A stretch of 64,000 nucleotides of DNA from the sequence record DRR378314_434. One strand, given 5' to 3'. Each line of letters starts with the position of its first letter. The first letter of the stretch is position 1. A model generated the notes under the pieces. That model saw only the letters and a list, made by a program, of their open reading frames with translations. It had not been told where the DNA came from and searched no databases. Both the position numbers and the translations under genes were made by a program. Shown piece after piece: positions 43,287 through 54,016 of this stretch.

Positions 43287-43766
43287 ATGGAAAAGTACGA
43301 AGAACTGCTGCTGGCCTTAAGAAAAGTGATTCGCGCCATCGACTTATACTCTAAGCAGTTAAATAAATATTCCGGGTTAACCGCGCCTCAGTTATTAATT
43401 TTGCGTGAAATAAATGCGGCGAACGGCATAACCGCCAGTAAAGTGGCACAAAATATCAATCTAAGCCCGGCAACCGTATCTAATGTCATCGAACGCCTTG
43501 AACATCGGCAGTTAATCCACAGACACCGTAGTGAACAAGACAAACGTAGGGTTTCTCTGTACCTCACTGAGCAGGGCCTGACTCTACTGGAAAAAGCGCC
43601 ACAGCCGTTGCAGGAAGATTTCATCGAAAAGTTTCAGGCACTGGACGAATGGGAGCAATCGTTGCTGCTCTCCTCAATGCAAAGAATTGCCAATATGATG
43701 GATGCGGAACGTCTCGACGCCGCGCCCGTACTTGAAGTTGGAAGCTACCACAAACTGGACCACTAA
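43287..43766 (+). CDS. MarR-family transcriptional regulator
   Basis: GLTAPQLLIL, LSPATVS, DKRRVSLYLT. Confidence 0.9.
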   Translation: MEKYEELLLALRKVIRAIDLYSKQLNKYSGLTAPQLLILREINAANGITASKVAQNINLSPATVSNVIERLEHRQLIHRHRSEQDKRRVSLYLTEQGLTLLEKAPQPLQEDFIEKFQALDEWEQSLLLSSMQRIANMMDAERLDAAPVLEVGSYHKLDH

Positions 43767-43767
43767 C

Positions 43768-45537
43768 ATGCACAAACGACTACTTAGCTTATTACCCGCT
43801 CTGCTTTTATCGGGAGCTGCAATTGCAGAAAACTGTGGAAGTGACAAAGAGATTATTCCTATTTCACAGGTGCAGGGAGACAGTGAACAGTCTCCAAAGG
43901 TTGGTAAGCAAGTAACCGTGCGCGGTATTGTTACCGCAGGCTGGCAGCCATCTGAACAGCTTGGCGGCTTTTTTCTTCACAGTTTGCCCGAAGACATGGA
44001 TGAGAACCCTGCCACTTCAGAGGGGTTATTTATAGCAACCAATAAGCAGCATTCACAAGTTAATAACGGTGAATGGGTAAGAGTTACAGGACAAGTTGAA
44101 GAGCGTTCGGAATTAACCTCGTTAATAGAGGTATCTAATATAACAACCTGTGGTGAAGCAAAAACACTTCCTGTGACAACTGAGCTGGAGCTTCCGGTTG
44201 AATCACTTGACGCGCTTGAAGCCTTAGAAGGTATGCCTGTCATTTTATCCGCAACTAAAGGCGAGAGCCTGACGGTTTCCGGCAATTACAATTACCCTCG
44301 CTACGGTTTTTTCGATATTTCCGCAGGGCGCTTATGGACGCCAACTCAAGTCGTTATGCCGGGAAAAGACGCGAAACTTCAGGCACAGGAAAACGAATTG
44401 AACCGCTTGCAGGTTGATGACAACAGCAATGTTATCGAGCCACGTCCACTGCCATTTTCAGAGCTTCAACATGGTGAACAAGGTAGTCTACGTTCGGGTG
44501 CAACCCTGAAAAGCTTCTCCGGTATTATCAGCCAGTTCAATAACCGTTACCGAATTCAGCCAACCGACGACTTAGAACTAGAAACACCGTCGGTGCAACC
44601 GCAACTGGCAGAGAAGTCAGATAAGGCCTTGCGCATCGCCAGTTTTAATGTGCTGAACTTCTTTAATGGAAACGGCGCCGGACAAGGTTTCCCGACTCCC
44701 AGAGGAGCCGACACGCCTGAGCAAATGCAACGACAACAGAAAAAAATTGTTGCCGCACTAACAGCTATTGATGCTGATGTTATTGGTTTAATGGAAATTG
44801 AGAATGACGGATTTGGTGAGCGCAGCGCAATAATGCAACTGGTCAAGGCACTGGAGAAAGCATCAGGGAAAGATTATGCAATAGCTGAGCCGCGTGCAGA
44901 AAAAATCGGAACAGACCAAATTACTGTCGGTATTATTTATCAGCCGCAGCGCGTAAAACCAAATTCTCACGCGATATTTACACGTCAGGGGCCTTTCTCC
45001 TGGGGAAGCCGCCCTCCTCTTGCACAAAGCTTTATCGACGCAAACACAGGTAAAGAATTCAGTGTTGTGGTAAACCACTTCAAGTCGAAAGGCAGTTGTC
45101 CGGAAGACTCCGAAAGCCCAAATAGTAATCAAAATGATGGGCAGGCGTGCTGGAACGACTTAAGACTTCAGTCCTCGCAAGAGTTAATTCAATGGATTCA
45201 GAGCGAGTCTTTAGCAAACCCGGTATTATTGGGCGATTTTAACGCTTACTATCAGGAAGACCCGGTGCGTTATTTTGCTGACAATGGTTTTTATAACCCT
45301 TCAGGCGCAAAAGACTATTCTTACGTTTATGACAGTCAGGCCGGGGCTTTGGATCACGTTTTTGTTGCAGACTCACTTAAAGACGCGATTCAGGAGGTGT
45401 ATCACCTACCCTTTAATGCTGACGAACCCCAGCTATATGATTACCGCGATGAGGCGTACTTTGCAGAAGGCCCATTTCGCTCTTCTGACCATGATCCATT
45501 AGTACTGGACTTAGTTTTTTCTGGCTCTGGCATGTAG
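43768..45537 (+). CDS. ExeM/NucH-family extracellular endonuclease
   Basis: Signal peptide, OB-fold (ISQVQG), SFNVLNFF, NHFKSK, GDFNAY, SSDHDP. Confidence 0.9.
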   Translation: MHKRLLSLLPALLLSGAAIAENCGSDKEIIPISQVQGDSEQSPKVGKQVTVRGIVTAGWQPSEQLGGFFLHSLPEDMDENPATSEGLFIATNKQHSQVNNGEWVRVTGQVEERSELTSLIEVSNITTCGEAKTLPVTTELELPVESLDALEALEGMPVILSATKGESLTVSGNYNYPRYGFFDISAGRLWTPTQVVMPGKDAKLQAQENELNRLQVDDNSNVIEPRPLPFSELQHGEQGSLRSGATLKSFSGIISQFNNRYRIQPTDDLELETPSVQPQLAEKSDKALRIASFNVLNFFNGNGAGQGFPTPRGADTPEQMQRQQKKIVAALTAIDADVIGLMEIENDGFGERSAIMQLVKALEKASGKDYAIAEPRAEKIGTDQITVGIIYQPQRVKPNSHAIFTRQGPFSWGSRPPLAQSFIDANTGKEFSVVVNHFKSKGSCPEDSESPNSNQNDGQACWNDLRLQSSQELIQWIQSESLANPVLLGDFNAYYQEDPVRYFADNGFYNPSGAKDYSYVYDSQAGALDHVFVADSLKDAIQEVYHLPFNADEPQLYDYRDEAYFAEGPFRSSDHDPLVLDLVFSGSGM

Positions 45538-46490
45538 GCATTATCGGTTCCGAAGTGAACCTCGAACTCAACACCAAGCAACCACTGACCGTTACGCTGT
45601 TCTGTCATAAGATTGCGAGGCCAGTGGTACCCAACCCAGGCTTCCACAAAAAACCAGTCCCGTAAGTATCGCTGACGATTAAGAAAGCGCAATCCATAGT
45701 CCTGAACAGGCACTTCATGGTCAGTATTGCCCTCTATCCAGGTTTCTGTCGCCCAGGCTTTTTCCTGCCCATACAAATGATATAAACGCGCAGTACTGTT
45801 CCAGCGAATACCGTCTGTTTCTTCTGCAAAGGTGCCTTTAGAAGCCCACCTTAATAGCCATGTATCAGTTAATGTGGCTTCATAATCCACTCTCTGTGCA
45901 ACACCAAAGCCGTCACTGTCGCGCCAGAAAGCTGAAGACTGCATACGAACTTGCTGATTGCCTGAAAAAACAAAACCTGTCATGTAGCGGGCTCTGGCAT
46001 AGGTATCAAACCGTAAACCACCACGGATACCTATACTGTAGGACACTCGATGCGCTTCGTTAATTTCGGGATCAAAACCTAAGCCCACTAGCCACTCTTC
46101 GTCTGACTGAGGAGAACGAATAACTGAAGGGCGACCGGTAGAGTCATCATCCAGAAACTCATTTTCATCAACCCGACCAATGAAAGCTGAAACGTTTTCT
46201 TTTAGCTTAGGTAAGGTTACCCGGGCTCTAAAACGCGACTTAACTTCAAAGCCATCGTACTGATCCCATTGCGGCGCAACCGAAAGCCGCCCATATGAAC
46301 GTTCATATTGATTAATGCTTTCATTTCCGAACAAGCCGTCAAACCAACGCGCGGTTACATCTACCGAGGTTCCAAGCCCGCTGCGGAAACTGTCCAGCCA
46401 CATACCATCTTCTTCATCAGCTTGTTGAGCTGCTGTAGCTGACTGGCAACCAAGACTAAAAATAAAAGCTAACCAAGTAATCTTTTTCAT
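45441..46490 (-). CDS. Hypothetical exported, probably outer-membrane beta-barrel protein
   Basis: Signal peptide from ATG 46490; alternating beta-strand pattern rich in aromatic residues. Confidence 0.7.
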
Positions 46491-46535
46491 ATTGAACGGT
46501 CTATAACTAAACACCACCTTTGGTTGGAGAACACT

Positions 46536-47648
46536 ATGTCGTTTCGCCTTATAATTGTTATTGTCGGTTTGTTAGTATCTTGTTTCAGCATGGCACAGAA
46601 TAGCGAGCCAACAAAGCAAAAAAATGAAAAAGTCGCGACTTTTGCCGGCGGCTGTTTCTGGTGTGTTGAAGAAGCTTTCGAGAAAATGCCCGGAGTCCGG
46701 GAAGTCATTTCTGGCTACAGCGGAGGTGACGAAGTCAACCCGACATACGAAGAGGTTTCAGCAGGTAAAACCGGGCATACGGAAGCAGCCCAGATATACT
46801 ACAACCCGGATGTCGTAAGCTACGCGGCATTACTTCAGAAGTTATGGCGTATCAGTGACCCGACAGACAACGACGGACAGTTTGTTGACCGCGGTAAACA
46901 GTATCGCCCCGCTGTTTTTTATCATAATGATGAACAAAAGCGCATAGCTATGGAGTCGCGCGAATGGCTGGATAAAAATGGCCCCTTCCCTGACCCGGTG
47001 GTTATTGAAATAACACCCTTTAAGAGCTTCTACAAAGCTGAAGAATACCACCAGGACTATTACGACAAGAACCCCGTTCGCTACCGCATTTATACCTACA
47101 ACTCGGGGCGTTATGACTTCGTTGAAAAGCATTGGGGCGATACCTCGGACGTTGACTATCAGCAATTTACGAATGACAACCCGACAGGTAAAGCTGAGCA
47201 GCAAAGTTTCGTTAAACCTAGTGACAGCGAACTGAAAAAACGCCTAACGGATATTCAGTATGCAGTGACTCAGGAAGACCAAACGGAACCCGCCTTCGAT
47301 AACCGCTACTGGGACAATGAGCGCAAGGGTATTTATGTAGATGTAGTAAGTGGTGAGCCACTTTTCTCTTCAGCAGATAAATACGAATCGGGTACCGGTT
47401 GGCCAAGTTTTACTAAGCCCATAAGCCCAGACGCGGTAGTAGAAAAAGATGACAGCAGCTGGTTCTATACCCGGACTGAAATTCGCAGCCGCAAAGCAGA
47501 CTCTCATGTAGGCCACGTTTTTAATGATGGTCCACCGCCTACTGGTTTAAGATACTGCATGAATTCAGCGGCACTGCGCTTTATTCCTTTAGAAAAAATG
47601 GAGGAAGAAGGGTACGGTGACTACATTCCTGCAGTCACCGATGATTAG
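46536..47648 (+). CDS. msrAB: Exported bifunctional methionine sulfoxide reductase MsrA/MsrB
   Basis: Signal peptide; [29 protein letters not shown]. Confidence 0.93.
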
Positions 47649-47662
47649 TTAAGCGGTAATAA

Positions 47663-49678
47663 TTAGGCTGTCCAGCCCAGCTCAGTAGCACGCTGCTGAG
47701 CCTGCGCGGGCACATCAGTAGCTACAAAATGATGGTGCAGCACCTGAACACCAAGCATATGGTTGATGACGGCATCAAGCTGCACACGCTCTTCATTCGG
47801 AACATTCTCATCCTGATGCCGTTCAAAGGTCCGCACCACTTCGTCGTAGTCAAGCAAACCGGCTGACTTAACTGCCTCAGCATTCAGGAATTGCTCCGCC
47901 AGCTTCTCAACAGCTTTCCACTTCTCCGGGTCGGTGTGCGCCGGCGGCGCCATAAAAGCGAACTTTTCCCGTTTATACAGCGTTTCCGGCAACAAGCCTT
48001 TCATGGCTTCACGCAACACATATTTTTCTTTATTGCCTTTAATACGCAGGTGCGGCGGCACAGTGAAAGCGTATTCCGCCAAGTGATGATCTAAAAATGC
48101 CGGGCGCGCCTCCATTGAATTAGCCATATCCACCCGGTCGCCGCCCCAGGTCAGAATTTGCCCCTCAAGCATGGTTTTAATCCAGACATACTGAGCTCTG
48201 TCCAGCGGATGCCGACCATCCAGCATGTCTTTATCAAGCGTGTTGGCAATAGCCAGGCTGGGGTCATAGCCTTCAACCTGTTTTCGCTTGTTCTCCGACA
48301 TAAGCGGCAGCGCAACCGATGAGCAGGAAAGCCACGGCTGCACACAACTTGGAGTAAAACCCATTTTCTGGTTAAAAGCGTCGCTGACAAACTCTTCGCG
48401 AGCCAACATCGCGCCTTTAAAGAGTTTATTGTTTTTCTCCAACAGCTCCTGCCACTCAACCCGCTCTACTTCCGGTAAATGGTCGAGTCCATGCAGGAAC
48501 ATGTCCTTTCTAAAAGCCGGGTAACCGGCAAAGAGTTCATCGGAACCCTCTCCGGTCATCACGACTTTATAGCCGGCTTCATGCACCTCTTTACTCATCA
48601 GGTACTTGGCTACGCCCAGCGTGTTATATATGGTTCGTTCTGTATGCCACAAAGTTTTTACGAAATGGTCGTAAAGGTCATCGGCTTTAAGCCGCATAAT
48701 GTGGTGATCAGCCTTAGTAGCTTCAGCCATTTCTTCTGCAATAGGTGTTTCATCATAGTCAGCAGAATCGAAACCTATGGTAAAAGCTTTTACCGAGGTT
48801 TGGGTTGAGGCGGACGCAAGTCCCAGAATGGCACATGAATCAATGCCACCGGACAAATAGCAACCTACAGGTACGTCAGCTGTCATTCGGTGCTGAACGG
48901 CTTCCAGTAGCTTAGCGCGGACCCCTTCAATATAAGATTCCTCGTCAACATCCGCTCCCGGATAGCTCTCTTCCGGCGGAAAATCGACATCCCAGTATTT
49001 ATGTTCCGTTGCAACCACTTTGCCATTTTTACGCTGCAACTTAACCACATAACCCGGCTGAACCTGATTAATCCCTTCAAAAGCCGTAGAGCCCGGCACC
49101 ATCACTTGAATCAGTTGGTGGTATAAGCCCTCTGCCGAAAACTCCCGTTTAACGTCCGGGTGAGCAAACAACACTTTCAGCTCAGAGCCAAACACCACGC
49201 CATGCTCCGTTTCCGTCCAGTATAAAGGCTTAATTCCAAATCTGTCGCGCACCAGGTACAGGCTTTCATCTTTTGCATCGAATAAGCCGAAAGCGAACTC
49301 TCCACGAAGCTCCTTTAGGGTGTCCTCCAGTCCGTAACGCTCAAACAGGTGAAGAACAATTTCAGAGTCGCTTTTACTGTTAAAGCGTGCGCCACGAGCG
49401 GTTAAATCCGCACGTATGCGTTTGAAATCGTAAAACTCGCCGTTATGAGTCAGCATCAGTCGTTTATCGGCTGATATAAAAGGTTGCCGACCTCGCTTTT
49501 CATCTAGGTCGATAATGGATAAACGGGCGTGACTAAATCCTACGCCGTAGTCTTGTTGTACTTCATAACCAAACCCGTCGGGACCACGATGATGCATTAT
49601 CGCAGCCATATTAACTAAGGTTTGGGGTTCTATCGCTCTTTCCGTTTGATGATGAAAAACGCCAGCAATTCCGCACAT
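47663..49678 (-). CDS. asnB: Asparagine synthetase B-like glutamine amidotransferase
   Basis: N-terminal MCGIAG, HRGPDG, NGEFY, RDRFGIKPL, SGGIDS, GEGSDE. Confidence 0.85.
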   Translation of the reverse strand: MCGIAGVFHHQTERAIEPQTLVNMAAIMHHRGPDGFGYEVQQDYGVGFSHARLSIIDLDEKRGRQPFISADKRLMLTHNGEFYDFKRIRADLTARGARFNSKSDSEIVLHLFERYGLEDTLKELRGEFAFGLFDAKDESLYLVRDRFGIKPLYWTETEHGVVFGSELKVLFAHPDVKREFSAEGLYHQLIQVMVPGSTAFEGINQVQPGYVVKLQRKNGKVVATEHKYWDVDFPPEESYPGADVDEESYIEGVRAKLLEAVQHRMTADVPVGCYLSGGIDSCAILGLASASTQTSVKAFTIGFDSADYDETPIAEEMAEATKADHHIMRLKADDLYDHFVKTLWHTERTIYNTLGVAKYLMSKEVHEAGYKVVMTGEGSDELFAGYPAFRKDMFLHGLDHLPEVERVEWQELLEKNNKLFKGAMLAREEFVSDAFNQKMGFTPSCVQPWLSCSSVALPLMSENKRKQVEGYDPSLAIANTLDKDMLDGRHPLDRAQYVWIKTMLEGQILTWGGDRVDMANSMEARPAFLDHHLAEYAFTVPPHLRIKGNKEKYVLREAMKGLLPETLYKREKFAFMAPPAHTDPEKWKAVEKLAEQFLNAEAVKSAGLLDYDEVVRTFERHQDENVPNEERVQLDAVINHMLGVQVLHHHFVATDVPAQAQQRATELGWTA

Positions 49679-49696
49679 TCTTTGCTTTTCCTCGTA

Positions 49697-50764
49697 TCAG
49701 ACGACATCAATGACGCGTTCAGCTCGCTGTACCATACAGGTCAGCAGCGCCATACGTAAAAACACCGCACCCCTTGCCTGGCTGAAATACCAGTTATGAG
49801 GCGTATGGTCGAGATCGGCGGATAATTCTTCACCGCGCGCTAAAGGGTGTAAAATAATCGCGCTGTCTTTTAGCGGAGACTGCGCCGTTAAGTGAAACTC
49901 ACTGCCATAAGTACTAAAGGTATCACCTTCCCACGAAATCGCGTTGATATAAACCACGTCGAGCTCTGGTAGTACCTGCTCTAAATCCCGGGTCGTACGA
50001 ATCTTTATTCCGGCTTGCTCAATCTGTTCTCGTTGCTCACTTCCAAACAGCTGAGTCGACGATTCCTCGTCATGAATAATGACAATTTCATCAATTGCTT
50101 TTGGAAACTTCACTAAACATTTAATAAAGCTGCGCACGGTACGCATTTTATTTGGCACACCAATAATGCCAATTTTTATCGGCGCTTTATCGGCTTCGTC
50201 CGTCACTAAATCGGGACGCCATTTAAACAGTGCGTACATATCCGTAAGCGCCTGAGTCGGGTGTTCATCTGAACCATTACCCGCATTAATAATAGGAATG
50301 CGCAGCGAATCGATCATCTCTTCCAGTGAGGTTTCATTATTGTCCCTCAACACCACGCAGTCACCATAGTTATTAAACATTTCAGCCACATCGGCTAAAC
50401 GTTCACCTTTGGCTATGCCGGTAGTAGAACGGTCAGTAATTGACATAATATCGCCGCCCAGACGGTGCCAGGCGCTTTCAAATGACAGACGAGTACGAGT
50501 ACTTGGCTCGTAAAACGCGCTGATTAAAATTTTGCCCTGTAATGAGGTACTAAAACGACGAGGGTTAGCCTCGTACTTTGCAGCAAGCCGGAACAGTTGC
50601 AGCATCCCCAGCTGCGAAAACTGATCAGCAGACACAACATGCTGATTCGACAAGTTCAGCAAGTAATCACCATCTTCCTGAATTGCTTTTAATAACGCCT
50701 TTGGATGAGCATCGCCGCAAACATCGGGGCGCTCTCGTTCAAAGGAGACATCCTTTATAGTCAT
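49697..50764 (-). CDS. Aspartate-carbamoyltransferase-like enzyme with altered acceptor site
   Basis: FYEPSTRTRLSFE, AKGE, NAGNG, HPTQ, HPL; the usual TRxQxER motif is replaced by NAISWEG. Confidence 0.85.
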   Translation of the reverse strand: MTIKDVSFERERPDVCGDAHPKALLKAIQEDGDYLLNLSNQHVVSADQFSQLGMLQLFRLAAKYEANPRRFSTSLQGKILISAFYEPSTRTRLSFESAWHRLGGDIMSITDRSTTGIAKGERLADVAEMFNNYGDCVVLRDNNETSLEEMIDSLRIPIINAGNGSDEHPTQALTDMYALFKWRPDLVTDEADKAPIKIGIIGVPNKMRTVRSFIKCLVKFPKAIDEIVIIHDEESSTQLFGSEQREQIEQAGIKIRTTRDLEQVLPELDVVYINAISWEGDTFSTYGSEFHLTAQSPLKDSAIILHPLARGEELSADLDHTPHNWYFSQARGAVFLRMALLTCMVQRAERVIDVV

Positions 50765-50768
50765 ACAA

Positions 50769-50891
50769 TTACCATATGGTTTTAGAAATAAAATCTTTAA
50801 TAAAAAGCCCGAGTAACAAAACCGGAGCTAAGCAAGTTATTATTAGCGCCAAAGAAATTAACCACTCAAAAGCCAGTTCACTGATTAGCAT
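50769..50891 (-). CDS. Unannotated 40-aa single-TM small protein
   Basis: SD AAGGAG, ATG 50891, MLISELAFEWLISLALIITCLAPVLLLGLFIKDFISKTIW*; fills the gap between the symporter and the carbamoyltransferase. Confidence 0.7.
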   Translation of the reverse strand: MLISELAFEWLISLALIITCLAPVLLLGLFIKDFISKTIW

Positions 50892-52314
50892 TTGACTGCT
50901 CCTTCTCATTTAGTGTGTCCCAGTCAAACTTTTCGCTACTGCGAAAAATGCCTACTAGACATATTAGACCGGAAACTGCACATGACACTAAAGCGGCGAC
51001 ATAGAAGCCGACAACAAAATAACTCAGCATACCAAATGCCGTACCGAACCCCATAGCGCACGCCGCGTATGTTCCCGTCAGCCGACGATGATACAGCCCC
51101 AGTACAATTGGCCAGATGGTGCTGGCAACAAAAGCTCCGGCAAAATTCAATAGAGCACCTAAGGTTGCAACGCGCGGCAAGCACAATAACCAGGTAACGA
51201 CTCCTAAGCCTAGAATACAACTGCGATTAAAGCGCATTAATGTTTTGTCGCTGGCTTTAGGTTTCAGTTTTTTATGGAAAATATCCTGCGTGACTAAATC
51301 TGAAGTAGCTGCGAGTAACGAGTCCAGGCTGGACGCCAACGCAGAAAAAATAACAATAAAAACAATAATGGCTCCGGCTTTACCGAGTACAGCAGCGGCA
51401 ACGGTAGGGCCAATCATATCGGGGCTTGGTGGAAAAATTCCCAGCTGAGGCGCAGCTAACGCAATGAACCCGGTAACAATAGGAATGGGCAGCCATAATA
51501 AGCCACCGGTTAAATAAGCCTTGTAAGCCACATTCTTTTTAAAAGACAGCGCCCGTGACCACCAGACATTGGAATGAAAGATTTCCCCAAGGCCGAAGAA
51601 GATATTGTTAAACAGAAACATGACGGCAGCCGGAAACAGCATGTCCAAAAGCTGCGGATGCTCACTTGTCAGGTTGCTGTGAATGCTCTCCAGGCCAACA
51701 TTATCAATTATCCAGTAAGCGATAAAACTGACACCGACAATGATGATTAAAGCCTGAATAAAGTCGGTAGCGATAACCGCCCGCATTCCGCCAAAGAGTG
51801 TGTAGCCAACACAAATTACCAGTATGGTGGTCATGCCAATGTGATAATCGAGCCCACTGAGTGACTCAAGCAAAATACCACCAGCCATACCCAGACTAAT
51901 TAACCAGCCAAAAGCATAAACCACAGAAATGATGATAAAGACGAGCCAGGCCAGATTACCATAACGCAAACGCACAAAGTCGCCCGATGTATAGCCGTTA
52001 GGAAGCAGTTCCTTAATGCGTTTAGCCATAGGTGCAAACAGCACTAAGCCCAGAGCAGCAAAGGAATACCCTACCATGCCCCAAATGCCGAATTGATAGG
52101 TTAACTGGGGAGCAACCAGCGTGGTGTTACTGGTAACCCAGGTGGCCATAGCCGTTGCCGCTGCAAACGCAAAACCAACATTCCGCCCTGCCAGAGCAAA
52201 GTCCTCGTGGCTGCGGTTCTTCCGCCCCAGCCAATAACCAAAGGCCACCCAGAACACCCCAAACAGGACGATAATCGTGATGCCGGTACTAGTATCCAGT
52301 GCGAACTCAGTCAT
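50878..52314 (-). CDS. Sodium:solute symporter (SSS; Dur3/PutP-like)
   Basis: LAGRNVG, YTLFGGMRAVIATD, SSLDSLL; about 13 hydrophobic segments. Confidence 0.88.
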   Translation of the reverse strand: MTEFALDTSTGITIIVLFGVFWVAFGYWLGRKNRSHEDFALAGRNVGFAFAAATAMATWVTSNTTLVAPQLTYQFGIWGMVGYSFAALGLVLFAPMAKRIKELLPNGYTSGDFVRLRYGNLAWLVFIIISVVYAFGWLISLGMAGGILLESLSGLDYHIGMTTILVICVGYTLFGGMRAVIATDFIQALIIIVGVSFIAYWIIDNVGLESIHSNLTSEHPQLLDMLFPAAVMFLFNNIFFGLGEIFHSNVWWSRALSFKKNVAYKAYLTGGLLWLPIPIVTGFIALAAPQLGIFPPSPDMIGPTVAAAVLGKAGAIIVFIVIFSALASSLDSLLAATSDLVTQDIFHKKLKPKASDKTLMRFNRSCILGLGVVTWLLCLPRVATLGALLNFAGAFVASTIWPIVLGLYHRRLTGTYAACAMGFGTAFGMLSYFVVGFYVAALVSCAVSGLICLVGIFRSSEKFDWDTLNEKEQSNANQ

Positions 52315-52795
52315 GGCGCTCTTGTCTGGAGTGGATCCATTGCCGATGAAGCAATAATAAGGTTGCTACCAAAGTAATGAAAATAACCAGGCCGACGAAG
52401 AATAAAGTCAGAGATTGCCAGAGCGGATAGTGCTCCACCGTTATCTCAATAGTATTGCTGGTATAAATTTGGTTATCAGGACCTTCGGCTCTAGCACGCA
52501 AATAATAAGTTCCATTGCTAAAACCGGTAAGTGAAATATCCTGGAAGTCACCTAGTGTAGGAAACTGACGAGTACTCTTGGCAAACTCTGAATTGCTGGC
52601 AACTTCAATAGTAACTCTGTTAAGCTCGTCAAAATTCGGAGCGCTAACAGAAACAGTGAAGTAACCTTCTTTTACAACGGAGTCCGGCCCGCTCAGTTTT
52701 AACGAGCTCGCATGCGCAGTTGTTGGCAACATTACCAACAAACATAAAGCAAACAAAATATAGCAATAGTTAAAGCCGTTTTTCTGCGTTGTCAT
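52307..52795 (-). CDS. Hypothetical exported protein with beta-sandwich-like domain and C-terminal TM anchor
   Basis: Signal peptide ending AHA, GTYYLRARA, C-terminal hydrophobic helix; overlaps the symporter start. Confidence 0.7.
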   Translation of the reverse strand: MTTQKNGFNYCYILFALCLLVMLPTTAHASSLKLSGPDSVVKEGYFTVSVSAPNFDELNRVTIEVASNSEFAKSTRQFPTLGDFQDISLTGFSNGTYYLRARAEGPDNQIYTSNTIEITVEHYPLWQSLTLFFVGLVIFITLVATLLLLHRQWIHSRQERHD

Positions 52796-52830
52796 TAAAA
52801 CTTCTGCTCATTAGCATTAGTTGAAATCTC

Positions 52831-52859
52831 AGGCTAGCAGCAGAATTTTTTAATTTCAA
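52831..52859 (-). promoter_or_regulatory. Putative sigma70/sigmaS-type promoter of the 52795-47663 operon
   Basis: TTGAAA-17 bp-TAGCCT with C at -13. Confidence 0.4.
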
Positions 52860-52940
52860 CTGTTTAAAATAGTCATCTGTTTACTGTTATTGCTCGTAAT
52901 CAGTTCAACATATTATTTACGTTTAGTGGTCAGTCATTCA

Positions 52941-53312
52941 ATGCAAAAGTATTTATGCAGTCTCGGTTCAAACCTTGAGCCTGAAACACATTTTCCTCAG
53001 GCACAAGTGGCCCTTAAAGCTTTATCCGACGATATACGCTTTTCACGAAACATACCGACTTCACCAGTCGACATGGATACGAATAACGATTTTTTGAACG
53101 CCTTATTTATTATTCGCACGCCTATGTCTGCGAATGAATTAAAGCAAAAGTTTAATGCTATCGAAGAGGCTATGGGCCGCGACCGCTCAGACCCACAAAG
53201 AAGCTTTAAAGATCGCACCATAGATATTGATATCCTGGGACGGCTTGAAGAGAAACCTCCGGTACCGGAATATTTAACCTCTTTATTACCAGATTTAGGA
53301 CTCACCTCATGA
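52941..53312 (+). CDS. folK: Short FolK (HPPK)-like protein
   Basis: SLGSNL, FLNA, IEEAMGR, DRTIDIDIL; start ATG 52941. Confidence 0.75.
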   Translation: MQKYLCSLGSNLEPETHFPQAQVALKALSDDIRFSRNIPTSPVDMDTNNDFLNALFIIRTPMSANELKQKFNAIEEAMGRDRSDPQRSFKDRTIDIDILGRLEEKPPVPEYLTSLLPDLGLTS

Positions 53313-54016
53313 AAAAAACAGCAGTTATTACAGGCGCCGGGCGACGTTTTGGTTTTGAACTAGCCAAAGCCTTGCTGACGGAGGGCTACCAGTTATTTGC
53401 TCACTACAATAGCTCGCGTGACGGTATTGACGAGCTGGAAGCACTTGGCGCTCAGGGCGTACAAGCAGATTTCACCAACATAGACAGTATTCAGGCGATG
53501 GTGCGTACTATTAGCAGCGCTACGGACTCTGTCGATCTATTGGTTAACAACGCTTCCTGTTTTTTCGACAACGAAACCGTTGATAACGACAACAACGCGT
53601 TAGCTGCGGTATTCCAGGTACACGGAATGGCACCCTATCTGCTTATAAGCGGCTTGCAACGGCAATTAAGCCATTCCGGGAATGGACTGGTTATTAATAT
53701 TACGGACATCTACGCTGACCGCCCGTCTACAGACTATATTGCTTATTGCGCAGCGAAAGCCGGGCTCGCCAACATGACCCAGGCCTTTGCTAAAAGTTTA
53801 GCGCCATCAGTAAGAGTCAACGCCATTCAGCCAGGCCCTATTCTATTTTTACCAGAGCACGATAAAGAACATCGTATGCAGGTTCTGGATGAGACACCAT
53901 TGCGGGTTGAAGGGGGTTTAGAGCCAATGATAGAAACCGTTCGCTTTTTACGCGACAACCCGTTTATTACGGGCGAGTCCATTAAAGTCGACGGCGGTCG
54001 CGGCTTAATGATATAA
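53309..54016 (+). CDS. folM: FolM-like pteridine reductase (SDR)
   Basis: TGAGRRFG, NNAS, ITD, YCAAKA, VDGGR. Confidence 0.8.
   Translation: MKKTAVITGAGRRFGFELAKALLTEGYQLFAHYNSSRDGIDELEALGAQGVQADFTNIDSIQAMVRTISSATDSVDLLVNNASCFFDNETVDNDNNALAAVFQVHGMAPYLLISGLQRQLSHSGNGLVINITDIYADRPSTDYIAYCAAKAGLANMTQAFAKSLAPSVRVNAIQPGPILFLPEHDKEHRMQVLDETPLRVEGGLEPMIETVRFLRDNPFITGESIKVDGGRGLMI

Follow-up and report, generated by a model that had tools for sequence, protein, structure and literature searches.

An Idiomarina operon that pairs an ATCase-like carbamoyltransferase with an AsnB-like amidotransferase and a DUR3-related symporter: candidate genes for an N-carbamoyl amino-acid amide solute

Introduction

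What would a marine bacterium make with an enzyme built like aspartate carbamoyltransferase (ATCase) in which the ligands of the aspartate side chain are replaced, and which is encoded next to a relative of asparagine synthetase and a transporter? This question is raised by an operon of marine Idiomarina, located on the minus strand (52795..47663) of a 64,000-nucleotide stretch of sequence record DRR378314_434, hereafter the window. Its five cistrons encode, in order, an anchored exported protein, an SSS-family symporter, a 40-aa transmembrane (TM) microprotein, the ATCase-like carbamoyltransferase (CT) and an AsnB-like amidotransferase (Table 1). An initial annotation of the window had proposed that the acceptor of CT is not aspartate and that the enzyme pair could make a carbamoylated amino-acid amide solute or nitrogen store. 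Our comparative analysis gives about an even chance that the operon serves to make and recapture an N-carbamoyl amino-acid amide solute.

Proteins of this kind were named "pseudo-ATCases" (Barba, Dutoit, Legrain and Labedan, 2013, BMC Syst Biol 7:99; PMC4016543). In the available part of that paper, a marine subgroup (Rhodopirellula baltica, Nitrosococcus oceani, Synechococcus WH8102 and Kangiella koreensis) is described as flanked by a Na+ symporter and a "putative asparaginase", as a rule beside a HyuC-like carbamoylase, and its function is left open. The only pseudo-ATCase characterised there is the Rubrobacter ureidoglycine carbamoyltransferase (UGTCase), which is encoded beside carbamate kinase. 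The initial annotation had mentioned similar clusters from other marine bacteria without established chemistry, and these are thus on record. We found no other paper that uses the term "pseudo-ATCase". The synteny itself was therefore already published. The carbamoylase/isochorismatase-type hydrolase partners, the DUR3 affinity, the microprotein binding model and the Ectothiorhodospira link described below are new, and we did not find the functional proposal in print.

The carbamoyltransferase lacks the ligands of the aspartate side chain

In E. coli ATCase, R167 contacts the alpha-carboxylate of aspartate, and R229 and Q231 contact the beta-carboxylate. When CT was aligned with the E. coli ATCase chains using HMMER, the motifs described in the initial annotation were recovered. 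STRTR, the K84 equivalent (AKGE), R105 (VLRD), HPTQ and R167 (MRTVRS) are kept. NAISWEG replaces TRVQKER, so that A, S and G occupy the positions of R229, Q231 and R234, and W that of K232. Further, HPLAR replaces HPLPR. The motif RxQxER, which belongs to the 240s loop and provides the ligand of the aspartate beta-carboxylate, distinguishes ATCases according to the accessible text of a review (PMC4581275).

This pattern extends to the relatives of CT. A scan of species-representative genomes yielded 384 CT relatives, and the best 80 were taken as loci (L004-L083). STRTR, HPTQ, MRTVRS and HPLAR were present in 80/80, and YINAI[SA]W was detected in 78/80 by regular expression, the remaining two being mis-hits of the expression at another site. 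Compared with E. coli PyrB (PDB 1q95 and others; approximately 132-156 bits), CT belongs to the same fold family and has the carbamoyl-phosphate ligands and the R105/R167/K84 equivalents in common with it, but it possesses an N-terminal extension of approximately 38 residues in addition to NAISWEG and HPLAR.

CT scored below the cut-off of all 17 NCBIfam transcarbamylase models listed, those of ATCase and ornithine carbamoyltransferase alike. The best was TIGR00670 (195.8 bits; cut-off 236.95), and NF002032 gave 194.3 bits (cut-off 263). In a phylogenetic tree, canonical ATCases formed a clade apart from the CT family with support of 100/100. Public records nevertheless label CT "aspartate carbamoyltransferase". 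Judged from its sequence, CT is an ATCase-branch enzyme of the marine pseudo-ATCase family in which the side-chain-carboxylate ligands are replaced and the other ligands are intact. The absence of RxQxER, the scores under the ATCase cut-offs and a separate pyrB in the nearest genome (see below) all support the view that the acceptor is probably not aspartate.

The tight CT family collapsed to one representative when clustered at 50%. Below it lie sister groups of 41-45% identity, which have STRT, KGE, HPTQ and HPLAR. The tree also contained a large clade of ATCase-like proteins of approximately 357 aa (P0136-P0160; support 100/100), which have the N-terminal extension of the CT family. Their carbamoyl-phosphate motifs have degenerated: SxRT is missing in many cases, KGE is absent, HPTQ has become HPTN, NPTH or NPSH, and HPLAR is lost. 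These proteins look like pseudoenzymes or enzymes of a different chemistry.

The AsnB-like protein and the housekeeping genes of the nearest genome

The AsnB-like protein possesses an N-terminal cysteine nucleophile (Cys2, in MCGIAG), a GATase_7 domain, an Asn_synthase domain with the PP-loop SGGIDS, and a C-terminal extension. The only model that it passed was the broad TIGR01536 (452.6 bits; cut-off 267.1). It failed that of E. coli-type AsnB (NF006949; 283.1 vs 499 bits, with the match in three stretches), that of AsnO of the N-acetylglutaminylglutamine amide (NAGGN) pathway (TIGR03104; 306.4 vs 570.1 bits) and the XrtA amidotransferase model (398.3 vs 816.9 bits). The closest solved structure was a hydroxyamidotransferase (7ylz; 183 bits), and beta-lactam synthetase matched as well. 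The protein is thus predicted to be a glutamine-hydrolysing enzyme of the AsnB family, and we propose that it amidates a carboxylate of the carbamoylated product.

To place these two enzymes against the housekeeping set, we used G001, the nearest genome compared (2.8 Mb, one contig, 99% complete, 50% of sampled words in common with the window). G001 encodes a CT identical to that of the window over all 355 residues. Away from the operon it encodes a 337-aa PyrB with RIQQER and a 316-aa ArgF; a canonical pyrB is therefore present elsewhere in the nearest genome. Further, G001 encodes AsnA (310.6 bits), so that the operon AsnB-like gene, which is its only substantial Asn_synthase gene, is not needed there for asparagine. 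In P. luteoviolacea and Lacimicrobium, AsnB genes of E. coli size exist besides the operon copy.

No carbamate kinase (arcC) reached the cut-off in G001 (best 21 vs 358 bits). PyrI was not found in this genome, where pyrC was not searched. The urease alpha subunit was not found in 4/5 carriers tested, G001 among these. These results suggest that CT and the AsnB-like enzyme of the operon are not housekeeping enzymes, and a catabolic role is unlikely because G001 lacks a detectable carbamate kinase.

Conservation and distribution of the gene set

A protein search with CT listed 120 relatives of 67-96% identity. Among those named were Idiomarina, Pseudidiomarina, Aliidiomarina, Sedimenticola, Thiothrix nivea, Pseudoalteromonas and Alteromonas. 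Another search gave 1814 relatives at E <= 1e-60. In the 80 loci, CT was flanked by the symporter in 79 and by the AsnB-like gene in 79, and the two exceptions were located at contig ends. The order symporter-microprotein-CT-AsnB spanned Idiomarinaceae to Nitrosomonas halophila, whereas the wider flanks were kept in Idiomarinaceae only. The gene order is thus conserved across orders.

To estimate the frequency of the family, we used an even sample of 300 gammaproteobacterial genomes. Twenty of these carried CT, with 55-65% identity (100% in G001). The carriers represent 18 of 265 genera, G001 and an unpublished genome (G346) included, and one further genome was unscored. From this class sample, 18 loci were fetched, with G001 and G346 excluded. 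Among 81 genomes of the genus Nitrosomonas, one (N. halophila) possessed the tight CT family and two possessed a sister form of 44-46% identity, in which the same anchor-symporter-CT-AsnB order was found.

The named carriers are mostly marine, halophilic or soda-lake bacteria (Idiomarina, Kangiella, Thioalkalivibrio, Thiohalophilus, Nitrosococcus and Ectothiorhodospira), and Thiothrix nivea is listed beside these mostly salt-associated taxa. Three class-sample copies look incomplete. In one (L103, genome G234), CT is truncated and without STRTR, AsnB is short and there is no symporter; in another (L106, G359), CT loses HPLAR and the match ends at residue 312. The third (L091, G207) has the carbamoylase and hydrolase described below, CT and AsnB, without symporter or anchor.

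A DUR3-related symporter with two small membrane partners

The symporter scored under every NCBIfam equivalog cut-off (PutP, 96.5 vs 515.5 bits). Its closest solved relative was the DUR3 urea-proton symporter (9j7c; 123.4 bits), and the next SSS structure reached 38.5 bits. To compare the substrate pockets, the residues described for Arabidopsis DUR3 (AtDUR3) in the available text of PMC11840088 were placed by hand on the alignment. W93, T98, Y117, W338 and P474 of AtDUR3 are kept as W59, T64, Y83, W274 and P402. W95, Q124, N305 and Y461 are changed to the smaller residues T61, G89, G241 and L389, and Y315 is changed to W251. Further, the two proposed proton sites, D312 and E402, are changed to S248 and L333. 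Thus, 4/9 urea-pocket residues are identical to those of AtDUR3, and four of the five changed ones are smaller. The mapped positions are invariant among 22 members of the symporter family, S248 nearly so.

We infer from these changes that the DUR3-branch pocket is widened to take a substituted urea and that Na+, not H+, is the coupling ion. In contrast to DUR3, which has approximately 700 residues in the Arabidopsis protein (9j7c; PMC11840088, in the part available), the symporter has 478 residues and comes with two small membrane partners. Neither of these, the microprotein or the anchored protein, matched a Pfam or NCBIfam family.

The microprotein is a single-pass protein whose sequence ends in LW. 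A frame with an [LIV]W-stop end was found at the symporter-CT junction in 79/79 loci having both genes. In 20 aligned orthologues, with 30-83% identity to the window copy, P23, L26, D33 and W40 were invariant. A model of the symporter-microprotein complex scored 0.78, whereas the best of three controls scored 0.00. This mark was reached by 51/78 solved complexes and by 2/108 mismatched pairs. At least 96% of contacts agreed between runs, and the predicted local distance difference test (pLDDT) score of the partner was at least 86. The complex model thus suggests that the microprotein probably binds the symporter as a small subunit.

The anchored protein possesses an N-terminal signal peptide, one FN3/Ig-like domain and a C-terminal TM anchor, and is thus bitopic. 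Its nearest clusters in the ESM Atlas were named "hypothetical" and "fibronectin type III domain-containing protein" (scores 0.93-0.97). A homologue was encoded upstream of the symporter in 67/80 loci as judged by BLAST, in 21/24 distant loci as judged by clustering and in 15/18 class-sample loci. The anchored protein is probably an accessory subunit of the symporter.

Hydrolase genes beside the gene set in relatives

Outside Idiomarinaceae, the gene set has an additional neighbour. A carbamoylase gene (approximately 380-430 aa) adjoined it in 19/24 loci. The products exceeded the cut-off of the hydantoinase/carbamoylase family amidase model TIGR01879 (342-359 bits; cut-off 204) and that of the subfamily model NF006771 (500-534 vs 399 bits). 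The second-best model was that of the N-carbamyl-L-glutamate amidohydrolase ErtE (351-382 bits, under its cut-off of 520). The closest solved relative was an N-carbamoyl-L-amino-acid hydrolase (3n5f; 245 bits). No carbamoylase homologue was found in the window. The G001 genome encodes one of 56-65% identity, approximately 1.1 Mb from the operon.

In the class sample, the genes lay on one strand in the order anchor, carbamoylase, hydrolase of approximately 250 aa, symporter, CT and AsnB. The carbamoylase, the hydrolase and the AsnB-like gene were each present in 18/18 loci and the symporter in 16/18. The second hydrolase belongs to the isochorismatase family of cysteine hydrolases (PF00857, 102-130 bits), and its best NCBIfam matches, which were weak, were biuret amidohydrolase and RutB. 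Neither the window nor any of the 80 loci in its clade had this gene, and it was not found in 4/5 carrier genomes tested. The wider system thus appears to combine two enzymes that would add a carbamoyl and an amide group with two from families that remove such groups.

Osmolytes of carriers and of a producer species

N-carbamoyl-glutamine amide is accumulated by Ectothiorhodospira marismortui according to the accessible text of Roberts (2005; PMC1224877). A genome survey of phototrophs mentions the compound, in the part available, without naming genes (PMC7824335), and we found no paper that assigns genes to it. In the NCBI taxonomy, E. marismortui is now E. mobilis. Three records of E. mobilis fell into one 90% cluster of the CT family, and E. 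shaposhnikovii and strain PHS-1 were likewise found among the 90% clusters. The E. mobilis CT is 61% identical to that of the window and has all the motifs. With the CT of one class-sample locus as the query, the relatives listed included E. lacustris, E. magna, a metagenome-assembled genome of Ectothiorhodospira, Thioalkalivibrio, Thiohalobacter, Thiohalophilus and N. oceani.

In Ketobacter (genome G005, locus L062; L109:1-6957), the gene set lies downstream of an ectoine cluster on the same strand. The ectoine cluster consists of a fused EctA-EctB (624 aa, GNAT and class-III aminotransferase), EctC and an aspartokinase, and the region continues with a second SSS paralogue and an RND pump (membrane fusion protein and AcrB-like). 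It is possibly an "osmolyte island".

Searches of G001 and Kangiella did not reveal EctC, Ngg or a member of the OtsA/GgpS family. The EctC search itself was effective, because it found the gene in N. halophila and Ketobacter. A BetA-like oxidoreductase of G001 scored under the cut-off (510 vs 732 bits), so that this genome may support betaine synthesis from choline. Searches for Idiomarina with compatible solutes, and for the enzyme names with salt terms, retrieved no relevant literature. The accessible part of a preprint with fitness data that include Kangiella aquimarina (10.1101/072470) contained nothing on the operon genes.

Proposed pathway and its alternatives

From these observations, we propose the following pathway. 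With carbamoyl phosphate as the donor, CT would carbamoylate the alpha-amino group of a neutral L-amino acid whose alpha-carboxylate is free, and L-glutamine is the best acceptor candidate. The AsnB-like enzyme would adenylate the remaining carboxylate and amidate it with glutamine-derived ammonia, yielding an N-carbamoyl amino-acid amide. This product would be a small, uncharged and nitrogen-rich solute with a ureido cap and a carboxamide. Its uptake or recapture would be the task of the DUR3-type Na+ symporter, probably together with the microprotein and the FN3-like anchored protein, and the smaller pocket residues would fit such a substituted urea. An N-carbamoyl-amino-acid amidohydrolase, encoded away from the operon in Idiomarina and beside the gene set in most other carriers, would break the solute down. 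In another clade, an isochorismatase-type amidohydrolase would be added.

The breakdown enzymes of relatives, the mostly salt-associated carriers and the presence of CT in the producer species agree with the carbamoylated amino-acid amide that the initial annotation had suggested as a solute or nitrogen store. A narrower version names N-carbamoyl-glutamine amide itself, and this we hold only tentatively. CT would then be a glutamine N-alpha-carbamoyltransferase, the AsnB-like enzyme an N-carbamoyl-glutamine alpha-amidating synthetase, and the symporter with the 40-aa and FN3-like proteins the first three-component Na+ ureido-solute transporter.

If so, genes would be assigned to an osmolyte that has been known for over 30 years, and the transcarbamylase superfamily would gain a new acceptor specificity. 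Many database names of the type "aspartate carbamoyltransferase" and "asparagine synthase" would need correcting. Among carriers of ureido solutes, a DUR3-type transporter that has two small subunits would represent a new type. Rather than one phototroph's curiosity, N-carbamoyl-glutamine amide would be used by approximately one in 15 gammaproteobacterial genera, by marine nitrifiers and in other phyla. Further, a solute with four nitrogens per six carbons would tie salt adaptation to the nitrogen economy of the peptide-degrading and ammonia-oxidising bacteria of the sea that use it.

Several observations weigh against the proposed pathway. Relatives have either S or A at the position of Q231, so that a side-chain amide is not read out there, and the acceptor pocket of CT has no positive read-out for glutamine. 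The presence of CT in E. mobilis is only moderately informative because approximately 7% (20/300) of gammaproteobacterial genomes carry it. N. halophila and Ketobacter both have ectC, so that the gene set is not their sole osmolyte option. R. baltica is a published carrier of the marine block (Barba et al., 2013), and the accessible text of a nuclear magnetic resonance study of this species (PMC3694870) reports only glutamate, sucrose, trehalose and mannosylglucosylglycerate, the word "carbamoyl" being unmentioned there. That a DUR3-like importer invariably accompanies CT is also consistent with the uptake of a ureido compound from outside. Finally, the synthetic and hydrolytic genes of the class sample lie on one strand, probably in one operon. 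Makers and breakers in one operon would run a futile cycle unless regulated, and they equally fit a linear pathway acting on an imported compound.

The alternative that survives best, which we nonetheless regard as unlikely, keeps the enzyme logic and changes the product: a side-chain-amidated compound such as N-carbamoyl-L-asparagine, or the carbamoylated amide of a different amino acid, would serve mainly as a nitrogen store or overflow product, not as an osmolyte. By our own comparison, the side chain of ureidoglycine, the UGTCase acceptor, is near that of asparagine in size and shape; the papers compare it with aspartate. L-carbamoylases require a free alpha-carboxylate, and the adjacent carbamoylase could act directly on a side-chain-amidated product. 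Carriers come from nitrogen-rich settings (the peptide-degrading Idiomarina and Kangiella, and ammonia oxidisers), and the missing report of a ureido solute in the accessible R. baltica text would fit as well. However, we found no carbamoyl-asparagine natural product in the literature. The salt-associated carriers and the Ketobacter gene set adjoining ectoine genes point to osmoadaptation, and N-carbamoyl-glutamine amide, the only natural ureido amide known, originates from a species in which the CT family is present.

Less probable still is the uptake and assimilation of an exogenous urea-like or ureido compound, in which the hydrolases, or phosphorolysis by CT, would release nitrogen and carbamoyl phosphate, and the amidotransferase would trap the product. 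The closeness of the symporter to DUR3 urea transporters and the location of the hydrolases on its strand in 18/18 class-sample loci would suit this. So would the related Rubrobacter UGTCase, which acts phosphorolytically in purine catabolism according to the available part of PMC4016543. Imported urea would need a route other than urease, because 4/5 tested carriers had no detectable urease alpha subunit. A urease-independent assimilation of urea, considered on the grounds of the DUR3 match and the missing urease, was not kept as a separate explanation and is folded in here. On the other hand, an ATP-using, glutamine-hydrolysing amidotransferase without an obvious catabolic role was consistently coupled to CT (79/80 and 18/18 loci), and a carbamate kinase was not found in G001. 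The transcarbamylase equilibrium favours carbamoylation (PMC4016543, in the text available). Further, the proton-coupling residues of DUR3 and 5/9 urea-pocket residues are changed, and the window's clade has no hydrolase in the operon.

A different chemistry appears improbable. Here the PP-loop enzyme would turn the ureido group into a guanidino group, by the logic of GMP synthetase, or close a ring, and the product would be a guanidino, hydantoin-like or signalling metabolite. The chemistry of PP-loop amidotransferases and of AsnB relatives is indeed varied, as the hydroxyamidotransferase and beta-lactam synthetase matches illustrate. However, we know of no precedent for ureido activation within the AsnB family, and the accompanying carbamoylase and amide hydrolase fit a plain ureido and a plain amide group.

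That ordinary redundant pyrB and asnB paralogues lie beside a transporter by chance, as the public name of CT and the passing of the broad TIGR01536 might suggest, is very improbable given the absent RxQxER, the missed ATCase equivalog cut-offs, the canonical pyrB and asnA of G001, the gene order kept across orders and in the 44-46% sister clade, and the separate clade of canonical ATCases.

Relation to known systems

CT of the window fits the motifs of the marine pseudo-ATCases (STRT, HPTQ, HPLA, and AIS for RxQ), and the window and 79/80 loci fit the marine block, in which a Na+ symporter and an AsnB-type gene flank the pseudo-ATCase. Kangiella is common to the data set of Barba et al. (2013) and our loci. 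In contrast to the four genomes listed in that paper (PMC4016543), where a carbamoylase is usually near, the carbamoylase is not adjacent in the window. Nothing in the available part of the paper concerns the microprotein or the anchored protein, and the DUR3 affinity, the isochorismatase-type hydrolase and the link to Ectothiorhodospira are likewise absent from it. The partner called a "putative asparaginase" there is an AsnB-type synthetase in all loci examined here. The subgroup numbering of the paper seems inconsistent, because the Table 1 row "pseudo-ATCase 1" (HPLA; AIA/AIS/SIA) fits "Subgroup 3". CT of Kangiella aquimarina has HPLA and AIA.

UGTCase (Rubrobacter xylanophilus Rxyl_2847) is likewise an ATCase-branch enzyme without RxQ that acts on a neutral ureido-bearing amino acid. 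In contrast to CT, which has a biosynthetic partner, it is catabolic, is encoded with carbamate kinase and allantoinase, and belongs to a different motif row of Table 1 of Barba et al. (2013). A UGTCase/allantoate function of the operon was considered and rejected on account of the missing carbamate kinase in G001, the different motif row and the biosynthetic partner.

AsnO amidates NAGGN. The NAGGN system (asnO-ngg and a peptidase-family hydrolase; TIGR03103/TIGR03104) would follow the same logic as that proposed here, namely an N-cap and amidation by an AsnB-family enzyme, with a hydrolase in or near the cluster. Its cap, however, is acetyl-glutaminyl from Ngg, whereas here it would be carbamoyl from a transcarbamylase, and the operon has a dedicated symporter, unlike the NAGGN system. 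Ngg (TIGR03103) was not found in G001, Kangiella or N. halophila (best 26.7 vs 569 bits).

Operon layout and neighbouring genes

The five open reading frames (ORFs) and their translations were confirmed (Table 1), and the tight, co-oriented packing described in the initial annotation held: the anchored-protein and symporter genes overlap by 8 nt and the symporter and microprotein genes by 14 nt, 4 nt separate the microprotein gene from CT, and 18 nt separate CT from the AsnB-like gene. The statement that the window contains no pyrI, pyrC or carbamate kinase stands for the 15 ORFs annotated at 42-59 kb.

Table 1. Genes of the operon and selected neighbours in the window.
Feature	Coordinates	Strand	Basis
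Anchored protein, 162 aa	52307..52795	-	ORF and translation
SSS symporter, 478 aa	50878..52314	-	PF00474, 114.7 bits
TM microprotein, 40 aa (46 aa if the start is 50909)	50769..50891	-	ORF and translation
ATCase-like carbamoyltransferase (CT), 355 aa	49697..50764	-	PF02729, 133.8 bits; PF00185, 49.7 bits
AsnB-like amidotransferase, 671 aa	47663..49678	-	PF13537, 135.1 bits; PF00733, 310.4 bits
HPPK-like (140 aa) and SDR (235 aa) pair	52890-54016	+	HPPK-like: PF01288, 62.9 bits
358-aa ORF	45441-46517	-	no Pfam family
MarR-family ORF	43287-43766	+	
EEP-family ORF, 611 aa	43702-45537	+	

A scan for promoter-like sites (11 vs 8.8 expected) and terminator-like sites (11 vs 6.6 expected) was uninformative. 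Among RNA-labelled Logan contigs, short contigs from a marine metatranscriptome (X6) matched parts of the CT and AsnB-like genes almost identically, and a salt-lake run (X9) contained contigs of roughly 91-96% identity over the operon and its flanks. In two further runs labelled as metatranscriptomic RNA-Seq (X2 and X4), contigs of 11-19 kb covered the whole 47000-53400 stretch, and the longest records were 39-108 kb. Because the contigs are this long, DNA carry-over in the X2 and X4 libraries is likely, and the contigs of the four runs are not taken as a sign of transcription, operon structure or salt induction.

The flanking genes are unrelated to the operon. One flank encodes MsrAB, the 358-aa ORF, an EEP-family protein, MarR and CsiV, and the other encodes the HPPK-like protein, SDR, aconitase, TesB and NupC. 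The HPPK-like/SDR pair is divergent from the operon, with 94 bp between, and this arrangement is kept only within Idiomarina and Pseudidiomarina. The 358-aa ORF is conserved (48-98% identity) only in Idiomarina loci. As listed, the MarR-family and EEP-family ORFs overlap by 65 nt, and the true start of the latter is probably further downstream.

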